A DNA stretch of 61,572 nt, counting the filler, from Candidatus Nezhaarchaeota archaeon WYZ-LMO8 (GTDB lineage: Archaea; Thermoproteota; Methanomethylicia; Nezhaarchaeales; WYZ-LMO8), in NCBI GenBank assembly GCA_004347965.1. It is 16 parts of 16 records of this genome, joined end to end, with 100 filler letters (N's around TTAATTAATTAA, not from the genome) between each part and the next. Parts side by side here need not be neighbours in the genome. Positions count along the whole stretch, not along the records: positions 17,784 to 21,593 come from QNVF01000065.1; positions 21,694 to 25,465 come from QNVF01000066.1; positions 25,566 to 29,290 come from QNVF01000067.1; 13 more parts are not named here. One strand, given 5' to 3'. Shown here one piece after another: positions 21,001-27,000 of the stretch (position 1 is its first letter; every line of letters starts with the position of its first letter). Made by a program: the position numbers.

Positions 21001-24000
21001 GCTCTGGACCTAAAAGGCGAGCTACTATCATGGCGCATATAGCTGATAGCAACGTTGCTAAGCCTCCACCCCAAAACAAGTGAAAGGTCCCGCTAGCAAC
21101 TTCCTCAGCAGTAAGTAATAGCCTCCTTTCCAGTGAAGCACTGTCCTGCGACATAAGCCTAAGAACTAACTGGACAAAGACTTATAACTTTTTACGAGCA
21201 TAAAAGAGACTCGTAACCCTAATACTAGGGCTTACCTCCTTGGGGCCCAACTTCATGAACGCTAGGAATGTTAATGAAGGAGCTTTCAGCAACTCAAGGG
21301 ACTTCGCAATGAATGAGGGGTCTCGAGGAGGATCATGCGAGTACGTCGTTGATGCGTCTCCAAATCTAATTACGGTGGTCATCCCAACCCTAAATGAAGC
21401 TGAGGCTATAGGGAAAGTGATAGACGAGTTGAAATCAGAAGGTTTTACAAGCATACTTGTAGTTGATGGTTACTCTAACGATGGAACCCCTCAAATAGCG
21501 ATGGAGAGAGGGGCTAAGGTGATCTTCCAGCATGGAGGGGGGAAGGCTGGAGCATTGAGGACTGCGATAGAGCACGTTAGGACCCAATACATGNNNNNNN
21601 NNNNNNNNNNNNNNNNNNNNNNNNNNNNNNNNNNNNNTTAATTAATTAANNNNNNNNNNNNNNNNNNNNNNNNNNNNNNNNNNNNNNNNNNNNAACTAAG
21701 CACGATTATGGCATCATCGAAAGGTGCGTTGACGAGTACGAGAGAAGCATTAAGTCGAAGTTCTCATCTAGGCGCCACGTATTCTTCACCTTCTTTAGCG
21801 ACAAACCCCTACTGGATGTCGACTTCGCTGTGTATAGCATTACGACACATGTAGCCAGTTCCTACGAGGTCTTAGGAAGGCTTTGCAGGCTGATAAGTAA
21901 GGAGTATGGTTACTTGGCCGAGAGACTGGGAAGAGACAAGGTAGTTTTCCCGGTGTCTGGGGTTGAAGAACTACCTGAAAAAATGAGGTTCAACGTCGCT
22001 GGATTGGACTTGGAGCTTACCCTTCACGGCATCAAGCCTTTAAACTTCTCTAGCGCTTATGAAGCGAATTGCATTAAGAGACTTTTACATAGAGCGATAA
22101 AGATAAAGTTGAAATCCAAAGGGTTCATAGTGAAGGGGCTTCAGGCATATTGGAGCAACCCCGTAGTTGAAAGCGATAAAATCGAGGTTAGGAGGGGGTT
22201 CGAGTTCAACGTCATTGTATTTAGTGATGGGGTCGTGGCGCTGGCTCTATCTCCTAAGAGCGAAGTTTCATCAAAGTTGACCCTTTGGGAGGAGAGTGGT
22301 AAGAGCTACGAAAGTCTGCTGAAGATGTCTCGAGAGCTACATGGTAGAGCAGCCAAGAGACTCTACGATGGCGCCATCATAAGGATATTGAGAGTTGAGC
22401 CGATTAGAGTGCATGAAATTGTTAGCGGAGCCAGCGTTCTAAGCATCTATGGGACTAGGGGCATCTTAAGTGGACAGATTTCAGTTGAAGAGCCAGTAGT
22501 CGTGGGGGACCTAAAGGGAGAGGAAGTCAGAGAAGCTCCTTCTATGCTAAAACTCATCTACACCTTGAAGGACCTCAAGAGAATGAAAGTTACCAGTGAA
22601 GTTGTAAAGTTCTTGCATTCGCCACCCCAATTGTGGCTAAAATCAGCTAAGGACTTCCTCAAATCTATAGGCCACATAGAGCTAGGAAGAGAGACCATAG
22701 GCTTCATTGATGAGCCGCCAGAGGTGGAGCTTCTATGAGAAAGGGAGGGTACCTTAAAAGGCCCGTGCTTAAATTTAGGGATGGTACGGCCTTAACCCCG
22801 ATTGAGGGCTTTAAGCTGAATTTTAAGCCCTATAGAGGGGCTAAGTCAATATCTTGCTACGTAATATGTAAGGGTAACGTACTACATGCCGCCAAAGAAA
22901 TGATCAACAACTTGATCTATGGAGTCAAAGGTTATGAGGGGTTAGAAGCATGGTTCGATTGTAGCCTGAACGTCCACTCAATAGTCAAGGTCGATGCCAA
23001 TGATGAGTACGTAAAGGTAGCTAATGAAGTTTCTGAAGACCATGACATCGTAGTAGCCTTCATTCCCGACGAGATGGCGGTAGAATACGAGGAAGACCCT
23101 TACATGCCCTTAAAGAGGATCTTAGCGGCTAAGGGGTTGCCCAGTCAAATGATTGAGGAGTCGACGTGTAGGCATTTAAGAGATAACAGTTACGTACTAT
23201 TTAACGTTGCTTTGAGCCTATACTCCAAGACTGGTGGCATTCCTTGGACATTGTCAGAGCCTTTGTACTTCGACTGCGTAATAGGCCTCGATTCTATGAA
23301 CAAGGGGGTTGCTGCTACAGTGGCATATGCCACGCCCTTATCATTCAACTGGTTTATTGAGAGTGGAGGGCGTGAGGCGTTGACTGAGGCAGTGATCTCG
23401 TGCTTGAAGGAGGCTAAAACGTATAAGCCGATTAGGAGGATCGCCTTTCATAAGGATGGACCGTTGCACGAGTCGGAAGTGGAGGCTTTAAAGGCTGCAC
23501 TTAATAGGGCCGAAGAAATAGGGTTAGTACATGACCCCCTATGGTGTGCGTTTGAGGTGAAATCTCGATTCACACCTAGAATATTGGGAACTTCGGCTCT
23601 GAGGTTCTACAATCCCGAAAAGGGGGTTTACGTACAATTAGATAAGTTTAAGGCGATCGTAGCAACGACAGGCTTTCCTGAGAGACCTTTAAGTCCAGCT
23701 CAAAGTCCTGTAAGACCTATAATGGTCGAAGCCGTTGACGGTTCGTGGTGGGATTTTGACTTTGAGAGGGCTTTGACGGATGTTTATTGGCTCTCAGAGC
23801 TACATTGGGCTTCGGGATTCACGTCTACGAGACTTCCAATAACCACCCTCTATGCTAAGAGGATATGCAGTTTTTGGAGAGCTGGAGTTGAGCCTTCGAA
23901 GCAGCTGTATGGTAAGCTGTGGTTCTTATGAAGTGGGTCTATGTCACATGCCTTGGCGAGACACCAGAGGCCGTGTATGGTCCACTTTGGGCACTCGTTG

Positions 24001-27000
24001 AGAGGGGTATAAAGCCGTCGAAGATCCATGTACTTTACACTGAAGGGGTCAAGTGGCTTTTGGACAAGGTCAAGAAGCAGATGGCTATAGTCGCCGAGAC
24101 GAGCGACGACGTCGTTGAAGCAACTGAAGTGGATGAGACCGACATCGAAGATAATGCTAGGACTGTGAGGGAAATTGTGGAGAGGTACAAGGCTGAAGGG
24201 TTTAAGGTATCGGTTGATGTGACCCCAGGTAGAAAGCCAATGTCAATAGCAACGTTTCAAGGAGCTATAGACGGTCAAGCGGACCTGGTAACGTACCTCC
24301 ACTTGATGATGAAGGATTTTGAGAGAAAGCCCTATCCACTGATACCAAGAAGCGTAGCGAAGCTTGTCTTGCTCAAGGGAGTGGGATCGTGGGTTTCTCC
24401 AAAGCCACCATTAGTAGAAAATCATGAGTACGTGGAGATAGACCAGATGGAGATATACCCATTCATAAACCTACTTTGTGAGGTCATCGATCGAAACACC
24501 ATAGCTATCGAGATCCCCTACTTAGATCTAAAGCTTTTAACACTAAGGCTCGAGCATCCGAATCCTAAGGTAGAGTACGTAGTTGACGAGAAGACCTTCA
24601 ACGAGAACTTGAAGAACAAGGGTCTCTTGAGCGCCGAGGCCTTCCTACCATTTGGTAATGAGAGGAAGCACATATTCCTGTTATTCAGGGATGCCCTCAT
24701 AGCTTCTGGGGTCGTGGACATTGGGCATAGAGCCTTGATCGATGAAATCAAGAGAGAGGTAGAAGAAGGTGCATTAAGAAGGGGATTTGCGGCTGTGGCC
24801 GTAGACACGAATGCTTTATACATGAGGGTCGTAACTAATTACGTGCTAAGCTTCGTGGAGGCTAGTAGGCTTAAAGTGTTGGTCTCGAACATCGTTGTAA
24901 GGGAAGCTTTAGCTCCCCACACTTTAAAAGAGATGGTTAAGGAGAAGGAGTGGGTCGAAGAGAGCGATAAGATCAAGTCTTTAGCGTTAAAGGTCGGGAC
25001 TGAAGCCCTGCAATTACCAGTTAAAGCGGAGCCTCTAAGGTCAAGGTTATCAAGATTAGCCGCTATTGAGTTAAAAGAGCTCCAAGAAAGGACCAACGTA
25101 ATGATCGTTAGCTCTGTAAGCGGTAGAGGAGACCTAGCTTTAATTGAAAGTTATAAGCAAAGCCCCGATAACCCCATATTCATAACCGGTGACGTGTCTG
25201 CTGCTAATGTAGCCGAAACTGTGAAGTTGAGGACTTACTTAATATCCTATGACGTAAGTGTAAGCAGAGAGGCTCTTAAAATCACTTACACAAACTTTCC
25301 AAGACTCATATTCAACTTAGCAACACTCTTAACGATGATCTCAATAAGGGTACCGAAGACGCGAATAGAGGTCCACGTATTAGGAGCGTGGAGGGATATG
25401 ATAACCTCATGGAGTAAACCAACGATCTTAGTTAGGGCGCCAAATCCAATACACGAAAAGGCGAGNNNNNNNNNNNNNNNNNNNNNNNNNNNNNNNNNNN
25501 NNNNNNNNNTTAATTAATTAANNNNNNNNNNNNNNNNNNNNNNNNNNNNNNNNNNNNNNNNNNNNATAGAAAGACAAAAAAGGAAATTTGGCGAAAACTA
25601 ATTTTGTTCCAATTTAATAGCTTGGAGGCTAAAAGATGAGTAAGATGCCCGACTTTGTAAGTAAGAGGATTTGGCTTGAGAAAGCTTGGGTGAAGGGCGT
25701 TCCAGCAGACGTTGAGATCCCTGAAAGACCACTACACGACGTGATAGACGAGGCTTGCCAAAAGTACCAGGATAGAACCGCTATAGTCTTTTACGGTGCA
25801 AAAATATCGTATAAGCAGTTAGGGTACCTCATTAGATGCTTTGCAACATCCCTTGCAAATATTGGAGTAAAGAAAGGCGATGTAGTTGCAATATATGCCC
25901 CCAACTGTCCTCAATTTGCAATAGCGTACTATGGAGCGATGATGGCTGGTGCGACGGTTACTGCACTATCTCCTCTCTTCGTACCTAGAGAGGTTGAATT
26001 TCAATTAAATGATAGTGATAGTAAGTACTTAGTAACTGTTGACGTTCTCTACAAAAACTTTGCAGCTGTGAGAAAGAATACTAAAATCGAGAAGGTTATA
26101 GTAGCGAGTCTCCTTGGCGAGAAGATTGAAGGGGACTTCATAGACTTCAATGCAATGCTCAAAGTTCAGCCCAACCCACCAAAAATTGAGTGGGACGTTA
26201 AGGAGGATATAGCAGTTCTACAGTATACTGGTGGAACAACAGGGCTACCCAAAGGTTGCATGCTTACACACTACAATGTGGTTTCTCAATTGTACCAGAT
26301 GATGCCCTACAACGACGTCCTCATGGAATGGATAAGATCTCATAGAGTTGTAAGGGAAGAGGGAGAGTACGTAATCCTAGATTTTGATGGCAAAGAAGTT
26401 AAAATCTTCAAAGACTACTACGAGAAGAGCTATGGTGCGAGGATAGCTTTACTTCCATGGTACCACATCTACGGGCAGACTGTCGACTTAAGCTTCGGGT
26501 TAACAGTCGGCGATGTACTCGTAGTCTTTAGCCGATTCGAACCAGATAAAATACTTGAAGCAATAGAGAAGTACAGGGTTACAACCTTTATGGGTGCTCC
26601 AGCAATCTTCGTTTACTTTGCGAATAACCCTGAACTCGTTAAGAAGTACGATCTCTCCTCCCTCGTATACGTTAACAATGGTGCAGGCCCAATAGCACCA
26701 GAAATCGTTGAGAAATGGGATGAACTGACGAGTAGTTCTGCTAGAGGGCTTCTCGTAGAAGGATATGGATTGAGTGAAGCTTCACCAGTTACTCATACAA
26801 CTTTTGGGCCACCATTCAGAAAGAGGAAGGTGGGATCAATAGGTCCACCTCTTCCGAACACTTACGCTGCAATAATCAATCCAGAAACTCTAGAATTCAT
26901 ACCAATAGGTGCGGAAGGCGAGCTCATAGTAAGTGGACCACAAGTGATGAAGGGATACTGGAAGAGACCGGAAGAAACGGAGAAAGTCTTCTTATACATT

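Follow-up and report, generated by a model that had tools for sequence, protein, structure and literature searches.

A two-gene Argonaute and a CARF-PIN nuclease in one operon of Thermoproteota

Our analysis of a 61,572-nucleotide window (the whole stretch of DNA examined, made of contigs in series with N runs and a TTAATTAATTAA spacer between them) identified an operon that encodes an Argonaute as two proteins, AgoN and AgoC, followed by a CARF-PIN protein. We tentatively interpret it as a hot-spring archaeal operon combining a long Argonaute, whose split falls between L2 and MID, with a ligand-gated RNase, and possibly as a compact descendant of an Argonaute region associated with CRISPR rather than a CRISPR-independent pathway. 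The operon belongs to a split-Argonaute family of Thermoproteota, the other members of which lie in CRISPR/HerA regions, and functional coupling of the split Argonaute and CARF-PIN is plausible. Its contig, C63 (21694–25465; 3772 bp), is cut at both ends, with N runs and spacers alongside, and has a GC content of 46.3% (43.5% genome-wide). The three genes share one orientation (+ strand) and are linked by ATGA stop/start overlaps. A genome-wide survey's note had described these overlapping genes, and we reproduced its gene calls, its profile figures and both junctions, given there as contig positions 1042–1045 and 2235–2238.

AgoN (21695–22738, + strand) forms the N-terminal half of the Argonaute. 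Its gene lacks the 5' end in C63, which carries 347 codons, corresponding to codons 72–418 of a 418-aa protein (full length represented by P0024). Its assignment is based on PADLOC profile PDLC02428 (positions 5–285 of 666, E 7.3e-19), alignment A4 and a structure model (pLDDT 75). An additional N-terminal domain of ~100 aa precedes an N-L1-PAZ-L2 layout, and in structure model comparisons residues 100–418 superposed on residues ~5–340 of CbAgo (Z 15.8) and TtAgo (Z 15.2). The PAZ domain (22265–22570, + strand; residues 262–363 of the full protein) was assigned by structural matches to the PAZ domains of human Ago1 (1si2; Z 11.7, rmsd 2.8 Å, 99 residues) and Giardia Dicer (Z 11.9, rmsd 2.0 Å, 92 residues).

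AgoC (22735–23931, + strand; 398 aa) is the MID-PIWI protein, as indicated by alignments, Pfam Piwi (E 3.9e-11) and the pAgo profiles PDLC02428 (positions 293–665, E 4.2e-51) and PDLC02436, its best match (E 2.3e-62). The YKQK 5'-phosphate pocket in MID (Y123, K127, Q138, K165) is invariant in alignment A2, and the PIWI tetrad is DEDK (D186, E214, D241, K375). In the same alignment C63 and L003 have K as the fourth tetrad residue, and L026–L028 have H; the classification given in PMC6299218 accepts D, H or K in the last place of DEDX as canonical. K is less common than D or H in that place. Judged by sequence, AgoC keeps a complete tetrad, and the Argonaute appears catalytically competent. Among proteins with solved structures, AgoC is nearest in sequence to CpAgo and CbAgo, two active long-A nucleases (E ~1e-20), with weaker matches to AfAgo (E 8e-10) and SiAgo (E 8e-3), while the nearest fused Argonautes (at least 698 aa) share at most 33% identity with it.

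The split into two genes is conserved, and the earlier view that it is no frameshift artefact holds. The metagenome contig L003 encodes AgoN, AgoC and CARF-PIN at 61%, 71% and 52% identity and retains both ATGA overlaps, namely that of the AgoN stop and AgoC start (22735–22738, + strand; 1484–1487 in L003) and that of the AgoC stop and CARF-PIN start (23928–23931, + strand; 2668–2671 in L003). An AgoN–AgoC overlap is also found in L029, at 56% identity, and contigs that other studies obtained from independent runs span both junctions without indels. An assembly error is ruled out by these overlaps and indel-free bridging contigs.

The CARF-PIN gene begins at the ATG at 23928 and is cut at its 3' end, where C63 reaches residue 512 of a 525-aa protein. 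It matched PADLOC profile PDLC01973 over positions 3–453 of 465 (E 5.4e-42), and its model reached a pLDDT of 95.6. The CARF domain (23928–24383, + strand; residues 1–152), with the invariant loop D97-x-T-P-G-R-K-x-M-S, was assigned from profile and structure matches (Can2, Z 15.0; Crn1 Sso2081, Z 13.9; Card1, Z 13.7). It is followed by a middle domain (24384–24779, + strand; residues 153–284), also present in SiRe_0806, and by the PIN nuclease domain together with the C-terminal stretch as far as the contig end (24780–25465, + strand). PIN itself (residues 285–448) was assigned from structure matches (3i8o, Z 11.8; 3ix7, Z 10.5), and its acidic residues D293, E326, D402 and D422 (full-length numbering) are conserved in the close family (alignment A1).

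CARF-PIN is a full-length relative of SiRe_0806 of S. islandicus, for which the PDB entries 9jxw and 9jxx describe structures in apo form and with cA4. The structural alignment covers model residues 2–525 (VIA Z 21.3, rmsd 4.3 Å, 382 residues; Foldseek E 9e-14), and the CARF-PIN family profile matches SiRe_0806 at E 7.8e-19, with the motifs TPGRK (in the CARF loop), DTN, GD and T-x-D in common, including the PIN acidic motifs. The two proteins differ in that the C63 protein shares only ~17% identity with SiRe_0806, is ~100 aa longer and is encoded in an Argonaute operon. The survey's note had proposed that CARF-PIN responds to a messenger-free or Argonaute-made signal. Given its kinship with a cA4-bound protein and the same CARF motif, ordinary cyclic-oligoadenylate input would instead be the default reading. 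Distant CARF-PIN relatives adjoin Cas1 (L007) and Cas4 (L004), and relatives of the CARF/PIN module on haloarchaeal plasmids lie in defence islands; no cas gene was found in the stretches read around the latter.

Among distant split-Argonaute relatives (35–46% identity), all seven loci examined (L026, L027, L028, L037–L040) have cas genes around them and two adjoin CRISPR arrays; Cas1, Cas4, Cas6, HerA, arrays and further CARF genes occur in these regions. The gene order AgoN / Cas1 / second Cas1-like / AgoC occurs in L027, L037 and L040. L028 carries Cas1, Cas4, an APE2256-family CARF gene, a 15-repeat array and Csm6; L026 carries HerA, an APE2256-family CARF gene and an 8-repeat array; and L038 carries a CARF gene, Cas4, Cas6 and HerA. 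In the closer relative L029, a Csx1-type CARF-HEPN gene lies immediately upstream of AgoN, and in G213 and G437 Cas10 and RAMP genes are found 20–25 kb away on the same contig. Across relatives' loci, Argonaute genes are accompanied by four other CARF families, varied defence genes, nuclease-like genes and HerA. Since the distant relatives lie inside CRISPR regions, the absence of CRISPR, presented earlier as a trait of this system, is not a property of the family. In the MAG holding C63 (93% complete) we found no match to Cas1, Cmr2, Csm1, RAMP or DevR and no repeat array by a crude k-mer scan, nor is there a cas gene within the 3.8 kb of C63. This absence is weakened because it concerns a 3.8-kb fragment of uncertain host, an identical CARF-PIN protein having been deposited under two different taxa. 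Cmr2 is present in a genus-mate of the MAG (G061).

The Argonaute–CARF linkage claimed by the survey's note recurs in another class. Among 120 genomes of this class, which is not that of the MAG, the CARF/PIN module was present in 6/7 genomes with this Argonaute and in 3/113 without it; all 41 genomes that have Cas10 but not this Argonaute lacked it. At genus level, related genomes not being independent, 6 of 39 genera had the Argonaute and 6 the module, with 5 in common (Fisher p 6e-5). The module was unrelated to Cmr2 (3/45 Cmr2-positive and 6/75 Cmr2-negative genomes). The link is thus specific and goes beyond chance neighbourhood. A Cas10 ligand source is often not visible in module-bearing genomes of this class, because 6/9 gave no Cmr2 match and the five of these tested gave no Csm1 match either; RAMPs were absent as well from G357 and G317.

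Argonautes made of two proteins and followed by an effector gene have been published before (AfAgo-N/AfAgo and SiAgo-Aga1-Aga2; PMC10954474, PMC11788926). The earlier claim of a new split-pAgo defence system with a CARF RNase consequently stands for the two-gene Argonaute, its conserved split and the shared operon, but not for the general design. As in the split pAgos described in PMC10954474, the N-half gene lies directly upstream of MID-PIWI in the same operon, and a putative effector gene follows immediately. Those Argonautes are described as catalytically inactive, with PAZ absent or reduced, and their effectors as a helical domain fused to TM, TIR, HEPN or PD-(D/E)XK, in contrast to the DEDK tetrad, full PAZ fold and CARF-PIN of C63. 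SiAgo-Aga1-Aga2 of Sulfolobus islandicus is likewise a three-gene Argonaute system of Thermoproteota, and Aga1 structurally resembles part of AgoN (8znj_B, Z 12.7, 194 residues). However, SiAgo is only distantly related to AgoC, and PMC11788926 describes Aga1 without PAZ and Aga2 as a membrane effector rather than a CARF nuclease. What distinguishes the present operon from the published split pAgos is an AgoN with PAZ and an AgoC with complete DEDK tetrad and YKQK pocket. Both halves find their best sequence and structure matches in the long-A proteins CbAgo, CpAgo and TtAgo, with a common tetrad and 5'-phosphate pocket, although these are single polypeptides. The MpAgo-like pAgos of type III-B CRISPR loci, as described in PMC6299218, resemble L026–L028 and L037–L040 in being competent, long-A-type and located among Cas1, Cas6 and type III genes; they are single-chain, bacterial and have a MID-OH pocket, whereas members of the present archaeal family are split proteins with a YKQK pocket, interleaved with two Cas1-like genes.

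It was also proposed that the Argonaute is a sensor whose guide-directed target binding switches on CARF-PIN without type III CRISPR, by contact or through a messenger from the Argonaute region, leading to RNA degradation of the abortive-infection type. We consider this unlikely, even though the AgoC/CARF-PIN translational coupling is kept at 52–71% identity, the module follows the Argonaute and not Cas10, at least five module genomes as well as C63's own MAG lack both Cmr2 and Csm1, and a separate downstream effector is a well-documented arrangement for split or long-B pAgos (PMC10954474, PMC11788926). The CARF pocket motif, identical to that of cA4-bound SiRe_0806, points to a nucleotide ligand. 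The loci read yielded no recognisable cyclase candidate; several of their ORFs have no family match. Missing Cas10 is weak evidence, because MAGs often lose accessory islands. Moreover, effector-coupled pAgos as described in PMC6299218 and PMC10954474 are inactive; AgoC keeps its tetrad and therefore need not be a mere signal-passing sensor.

PIN nucleases depend on metal ions and generate 5'-phosphate ends, a chemistry that suits the invariant YKQK pocket. By analogy with Agap-HEPN, which feeds AmAgo, the RNase could cut transcripts into 5'-phosphate pieces that load the split Argonaute, with CARF confining this to infected cells. Such guide supply seems improbable to us, although an Argonaute that looks competent would need guides rather than an effector, and the specific co-occurrence fits here also. 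A co-encoded guide-making RNase has been shown experimentally for the active AmAgo with Agap-HEPN (PMC11162769), described there as a single-chain bacterial pAgo and a HEPN RNase with 5'-OH products and no sensor domain. DNA guides could instead come from the HerA and nuclease-like neighbours, and SiRe_0806-type proteins are presented in their structural entries as cA4 binders and are not known to be linked to an Argonaute. Quite unlikely, in our assessment, is mere co-location, in which independent defence genes travel together in a defence/CRISPR island and the operon has no mechanistic meaning. Defence genes do cluster, relatives' Argonaute genes have many defence genes and the other CARF families nearby, and in three of four genomes with both on one contig (G213, G357, Salinigranum) the module is 10–13 kb from the Argonaute gene and non-adjacent. 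Against this, the four-base overlaps are kept in two lineages, the co-occurrence holds at genus level, and fusion of the CARF and PIN genes is seen in exactly the lineage that placed them next to AgoC.

In the CRISPR-derived operon that we tentatively favour, AgoN and AgoC would form a complete, cutting-competent Argonaute, binding guides with a 5' phosphate and slicing the nucleic acid of invaders. CARF-PIN would be a second arm, co-inherited and co-expressed with it, in which a CARF dimer binding a cyclic-oligoadenylate-type (cA4-like) ligand, whose most likely source is a type III Cas10 of the same cell and not the Argonaute, turns on the RNase. The outcome would be collateral RNA cleavage, and the RNase may also yield 5'-phosphate RNA fragments acceptable to the MID pocket. 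The pairing of Argonaute and CARF may thereby connect two immune systems.

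The operon lies on C63, one of the 78 contigs of a 1.35-Mb metagenome-assembled genome (MAG; 93% complete), at window positions 21694-25465. Three ORFs in the same orientation fill this contig: the N-terminal Argonaute half AgoN (21695-22738, 5' end cut), the MID-PIWI half AgoC (22735-23931; 398 aa), and a protein with a CARF domain and a PIN nuclease (CARF-PIN), which starts with the ATG at 23928 and runs off the end of C63. The AgoN/AgoC and AgoC/CARF-PIN junctions are both ATGA overlaps. The profile matches reported in the genome-wide survey's note were reproduced for AgoN (positions 5-285 of 666 in PDLC02428, E 7.3e-19), for AgoC (positions 293-665 of PDLC02428, E 4.2e-51; PDLC02436, E 2.3e-62; Pfam Piwi, E 3.9e-11), and for CARF-PIN (positions 3-453 of 465 in PDLC01973, E 5.4e-42). 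Within the window, contigs follow one another with runs of N and the spacer TTAATTAATTAA in between; the stretches next to C63 are other contigs of the MAG, not genomic context for the operon. These stretches (19538-21594 and 25567-27411) contain a multi-pass membrane protein of 538 aa, a glycosyltransferase-like ORF that is cut, and an ORF of 591 aa.

The earlier claims that the Argonaute is genuinely split and that the three-gene order recurs were borne out by relatives and by independent assemblies, the latter free of insertions or deletions. Metagenome contig L003 carries the three genes in identical order with both ATGA overlaps (protein identity to C63: AgoN 61%, AgoC 71%, CARF-PIN 52%). 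On contig L029, whose genome belongs to the same family, a 422-aa AgoN overlaps AgoC (56% identity) before the contig ends. Near-identical stretches of C63 were present in hot-spring metagenomes from 8 studies; contigs of sequencing runs X8 and X10 bridged the AgoN/AgoC junction, those of X8 and X11 bridged the AgoC/CARF-PIN junction, and no insertion or deletion was found at the C63 junctions in any run compared. Five contigs from RNA library X15 (95-99% alike) covered parts of all three genes, which is not proof of transcription; nothing follows from the parts left uncovered.

AgoC was matched by both Piwi and pAgo profiles. Among solved sequences, CpAgo and CbAgo, both active nucleases, came closest to it (E about 1e-20), followed by AfAgo (8e-10) and SiAgo (8e-3), and fused Argonautes of at least 698 aa shared at most 33% identity with it. 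Residues Y123, K127, Q138, and K165 are invariant in the AgoC family alignment (A2); we take them to be the 5'-phosphate pocket of the MID domain (Y-K-Q-K), which differs from the MID-OH pocket of the MpAgo type. Alignment to CpAgo and within A2 placed the tetrad at D186-E214-D241-K375, the canonical form being DEDX with X as D, H, or K (PMC6299218, section 9). At the fourth position C63 and L003 have K, whereas the more distant L026, L027, and L028 have H; L026 also has E at the third.

Full-length AgoN (P0024) has 418 aa, and its model reached a mean pLDDT of 75. In model-based structure comparisons with long Argonautes, residues 100-418 corresponded to positions of about 5-340 in CbAgo (Z 15.8) and TtAgo (Z 15.2); PIWI-clade proteins matched at Z 12-14. 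SiAga1 of the SiAgo system also matched (Z 12.7), yet across 194 residues only. A PAZ domain is present, with residues 262-363 matching the isolated PAZ 1si2 (Z 11.7, rmsd 2.8 Å, 99 residues) and the PAZ of Giardia Dicer (Z 11.9). The long-A domain set (N-L1-PAZ-L2 and MID-PIWI) is complete across AgoN and AgoC. This domain set, the tetrad, and the pocket together identify the pair as an Argonaute of long-A type that is divided between L2 and MID, rather than a degenerate one of the short or long-B type. Long-A pAgos are single polypeptides, whereas AgoN/AgoC comprises two ORFs joined by an ATGA overlap. The fAfAgo and SiAgo split systems similarly have the N-half gene directly upstream of the MID-PIWI gene, but their PIWI is inactive and their PAZ lost or reduced, in contrast to the DEDK tetrad and PAZ fold found here. 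AgoN also has an extra N-terminal domain of ~100 residues preceding the canonical Argonaute N domain (window 21695-21994, given as residues 72-100; residues 1-71 lie off the contig). An Atlas structure search with residues 1-100 returned sub-threshold Argonaute-N-like leads only (scores 0.80-0.87), with no clear fold or family.

Close relatives of CARF-PIN are as few as the survey's note had stated, with 7 in a collection of 5.8 billion proteins. Searching with the CARF-PIN profile at E <= 0.001 recovered 354 representatives, among them many stand-alone CARF proteins of ~150 aa and proteins of ~350 aa that matched the rest of the profile. Viral contigs yielded no relative of CARF-PIN. The structure of full-length CARF-PIN (P0004) was modelled from 56 sequences (pLDDT 95.6, pTM 0.94), and its best structural match by far was SiRe_0806 of S. 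islandicus (9jxw and 9jxx, apo and with cA4). Foldseek placed this match at E 9e-14 with a TM of 0.65-0.67 by target, and VIA at Z 21.3 (rmsd 4.3 Å, 382/411 residues). The SiRe_0806 sequence was itself matched by the CARF-PIN family profile (E 7.8e-19), and the two proteins have in common the D-x-TPGRK-x-M loop of the CARF domain and the DTN, GD, and T-x-D motifs of the PIN domain. The CARF domain (residues 1-152) matched Can2, Card1, Crn1, and Csm6 at Z 13-15, and the PIN domain (residues 285-448) matched PIN folds at Z 8-12. The CARF loop is invariant in alignment A3, as are the four PIN acidic residues D293, E326, D402, and D422 in alignment A1. Since the ligand loop and these four residues are kept in the Argonaute-linked members, the sequences argue for CARF-PIN as a working, predicted ligand-gated RNase. 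Homology to cA4-bound 9jxx further predicts that cyclic oligoadenylate would bind and activate it.

With regard to the host, the identical CARF-PIN is filed under both Thermosphaera sp. and Nezhaarchaeales MAGs, on contigs of up to 276 kb, which upholds the doubt about binning that had been raised. Compared with 320 chunks of the MAG, C63 fell at the 8th percentile for tetranucleotide correlation and the 94th for GC, so that its binning is neither backed nor rejected. The survey's statement that there is no CRISPR agrees with the searches of the MAG itself, which found no Cas1, Cmr2, Csm1, RAMP, DevR, or array, but not with distant relatives, which lie in cas regions. No Cas10 cyclase or RAMP genes were found in the MAG at 93% completeness, with the host of C63 uncertain. 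Such negative results are weak evidence, because C63 spans only 3.8 kb of mildly atypical composition and encodes a protein found identically under two labels, and because of the genus-mates, one with an Argonaute-less CARF-PIN remnant and another with Cmr2. The remnant, in line with the decayed copy that the survey had described, is frameshifted and spans residues ~148-525 at 80% identity (L002 10001-11091, the same place as L030 9689-10821). It adjoins genes for aEF-2 and phosphate transport, and there is no Argonaute in its vicinity.

More distant AgoC relatives (35-46% identity), from another class of the phylum, were located among cas genes. Cas genes or a CRISPR array accompanied the Argonaute in 7/7 of the more distant loci (L026, L027, L028, and L037-L040), while the C63 and L003 contigs end at the operon. 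In three genomes (L027 2764-7235, L037 2000-6416, and L040 522-4230), AgoN is followed by Cas1, a divergent gene of Cas1 type that lies on the other strand, and AgoC, and this recurring flanking of a Cas1 pair by the Argonaute halves hints at a tie between Argonaute and spacer acquisition. Beyond AgoC lie Cas6 in L027, and a 350-aa protein and HerA in L037. L028 contains Cas1, an APE2256-family CARF, Cas4, AgoC, a 15-repeat CRISPR array, and a Csm6-type protein, with AgoN decayed; L026 contains HerA, an APE2256-family CARF, AgoC, and an 8-repeat array. L038 and L039 combine a 163-aa CARF, a 345-aa protein of unknown type, Argonaute, Cas4, Cas6, HerA, and an APE2256-family CARF. Their 163-aa CARF belongs to the same family as the CARF of CARF-PIN (44% identical over 89 residues). 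In L038, the 345-aa gene immediately past the CARF gene gave no match to the CARF-PIN profile, and a 355-aa protein next to HerA (2380-3447) matched the PIN part of that profile (positions 230-448, E 2e-20). In the closer relative L029, a Csx1-type CARF-HEPN gene lies immediately upstream of AgoN.

CRISPR genes were also found at greater distance from the Argonaute and beside CARF-PIN relatives. Genomes G213 and G437 carry Cas10 and RAMP genes on the Argonaute contig, 20-25 kb off, and distant CARF-PIN relatives adjoin Cas1 (L007, 24% identity) and Cas4 (L004). In genomes G357 (L026 9257-11389; 99% complete) and G317 (L027; 95% complete), AgoC is accompanied by Cas1, Cas6, and/or a CRISPR array. 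Searches of these two genomes gave no match for Cmr2, Csm1, or RAMP; DevR was not found in G317, and G357 has one, of type I, on another contig. Argonautes within CRISPR loci are already published for the MpAgo group (PMC6299218, section 12). A family of ~350 aa, 38-45% identical, stands alongside HerA or Argonaute (L037 6454-7506, L027 513-1583, and L026 3868-4899). It may be what the survey had called NurA-like, a name that its Pfam and PADLOC searches, which gave no match, did not confirm.

We compared the distributions of Argonaute and of the CARF/PIN module (matches to the CARF-PIN profile, fused or as separate genes) across 120 genomes of the class of G213, with cut-offs of E <= 1e-20 for AgoC, E <= 1e-8 for the CARF-PIN profile, and E <= 1e-5 for Cmr2. 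AgoC occurred in 7 genomes, the module in 9, and both in 6; by genus, 5 were shared out of 6 and 6, among 39. Cmr2 was present in 45/120 genomes; 3 of these 45 had the module, all 3 also with Argonaute, and the module occurred in 0/41 Cas10-positive genomes without Argonaute. Fisher tests of Argonaute against the module (1.6e-7 by genome, 6e-5 by genus, and 0.007 within the six families holding either feature, a post hoc grouping) overstate the case because related genomes are not independent. The co-occurrence favours some functional coupling. Argonaute and module shared a contig in three genomes, at spacings of 2, 12, and 13 kb. Among the nine module-bearing genomes, Cmr2 gave no match in six, and Csm1 gave none in the five of those checked. 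The CARF part and the remainder occupy separate frames (G317, G357, and G213) or genes (L038) in this class; only one fused gene, coupled to AgoC, is seen in the lineage of C63 and L003.

Relatives of the module also occur in haloarchaea, where plasmids carry a two-gene form (a CARF of ~150 aa and a protein of ~347 aa) inside defence islands with DISARM-like systems and helicase-nuclease pairs (e.g., L031 7974-10506, L032 1-7505, and L043 13599-15505). No cas genes were found by this form in the stretches read (4 loci), and an ADP-ribosylglycohydrolase gene lay within 6 kb in 3/4 loci. In one of the four, on a Salinigranum marinum plasmid (L041 11932-24495), 2 kb separate a CARF homologue from the end of a pAgo operon that comprises a long pAgo, phospholipase D, UvrD, a PD-(D/E)XK nuclease, and a helicase.

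Our best, although tentative, reading is that AgoN and AgoC would together make up an Argonaute able to cut, with 5'-phosphate oligonucleotides as its guides. CARF-PIN would be its second arm, inherited along with the Argonaute and gated by a cA4-like ligand that most likely comes from a type III system of the host. Argonaute-driven switching of CARF-PIN without CRISPR, as the survey's note had proposed, appears unlikely to us: none of the cas genes sought were found in the MAG, but a simple relay from sensor to effector is at odds with the tetrad being intact and the pocket resembling that of SiRe_0806. We consider it similarly doubtful that the PIN domain is a guide-making RNase for the split Argonaute, a role for which Agap-HEPN offers a parallel in its supply of guides to AmAgo (PMC11162769). 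Mere co-location of Argonaute and CARF-PIN is slightly less probable still, considering a co-occurrence that favours coupling.

A further reading, to which we give little weight, is that the module is a dedicated, Cas10-independent partner of the split Argonaute, with a small-nucleotide messenger made by the Argonaute/HerA region or with the CARF domain reading a product of the Argonaute's action. Either route, if real, would be without precedent as a CARF pathway that an Argonaute drives. This reading fits the presence of the module in 6/7 Argonaute genomes and in 0/41 Cas10-positive genomes lacking Argonaute, the at least five module-bearing genomes without detectable Cas10, and the haloarchaeal relatives, whose defence islands showed no cas gene within the stretches read; Cas10 and RAMP genes on the Argonaute contigs of G213 and G437 are in line with the type III source of our preferred reading. 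As a bolder corollary of Cas10 independence, the Argonaute of G317 and G357 may itself use array transcripts. The basis for this is that G317 combines Cas1 and Cas6 with the split Argonaute and the module, with no Cas10, RAMP, or DevR found, and that G357 has a CRISPR array beside AgoC and a type I DevR only, on another contig.

The proposal of a new kind of pAgo system stands in part. Split pAgos with downstream effectors are already known (PMC10954474, section 26), as are CRISPR-embedded pAgos and a cA4-binding CARF-PIN. Three features were without a description in the literature searched, which did not cover the CARF_m1 census: a split Argonaute with PAZ and tetrad, its interleaving with Cas1, and its specific pairing with CARF/PIN. 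No pAgo-CARF system was among the matches listed, and nothing was found for SiRe_0806 by name. A split Argonaute with PAZ and a full tetrad is a misfit to the published scenario, in which catalysis is lost before splitting and effector recruitment. Because these are thermophile proteins with models of high (CARF-PIN) and moderate (AgoN) confidence, biochemistry looks practical. The CARF/PIN link and the Cas1 interleaving point to cross-talk between Argonaute and CRISPR in hot-spring archaea, a question ever since MpAgo turned up within CRISPR loci. Since Cas10 is frequently not detectable where this CARF family is present, the family is a testable candidate for a CARF sensor with another input, one that may not depend on Cas10.
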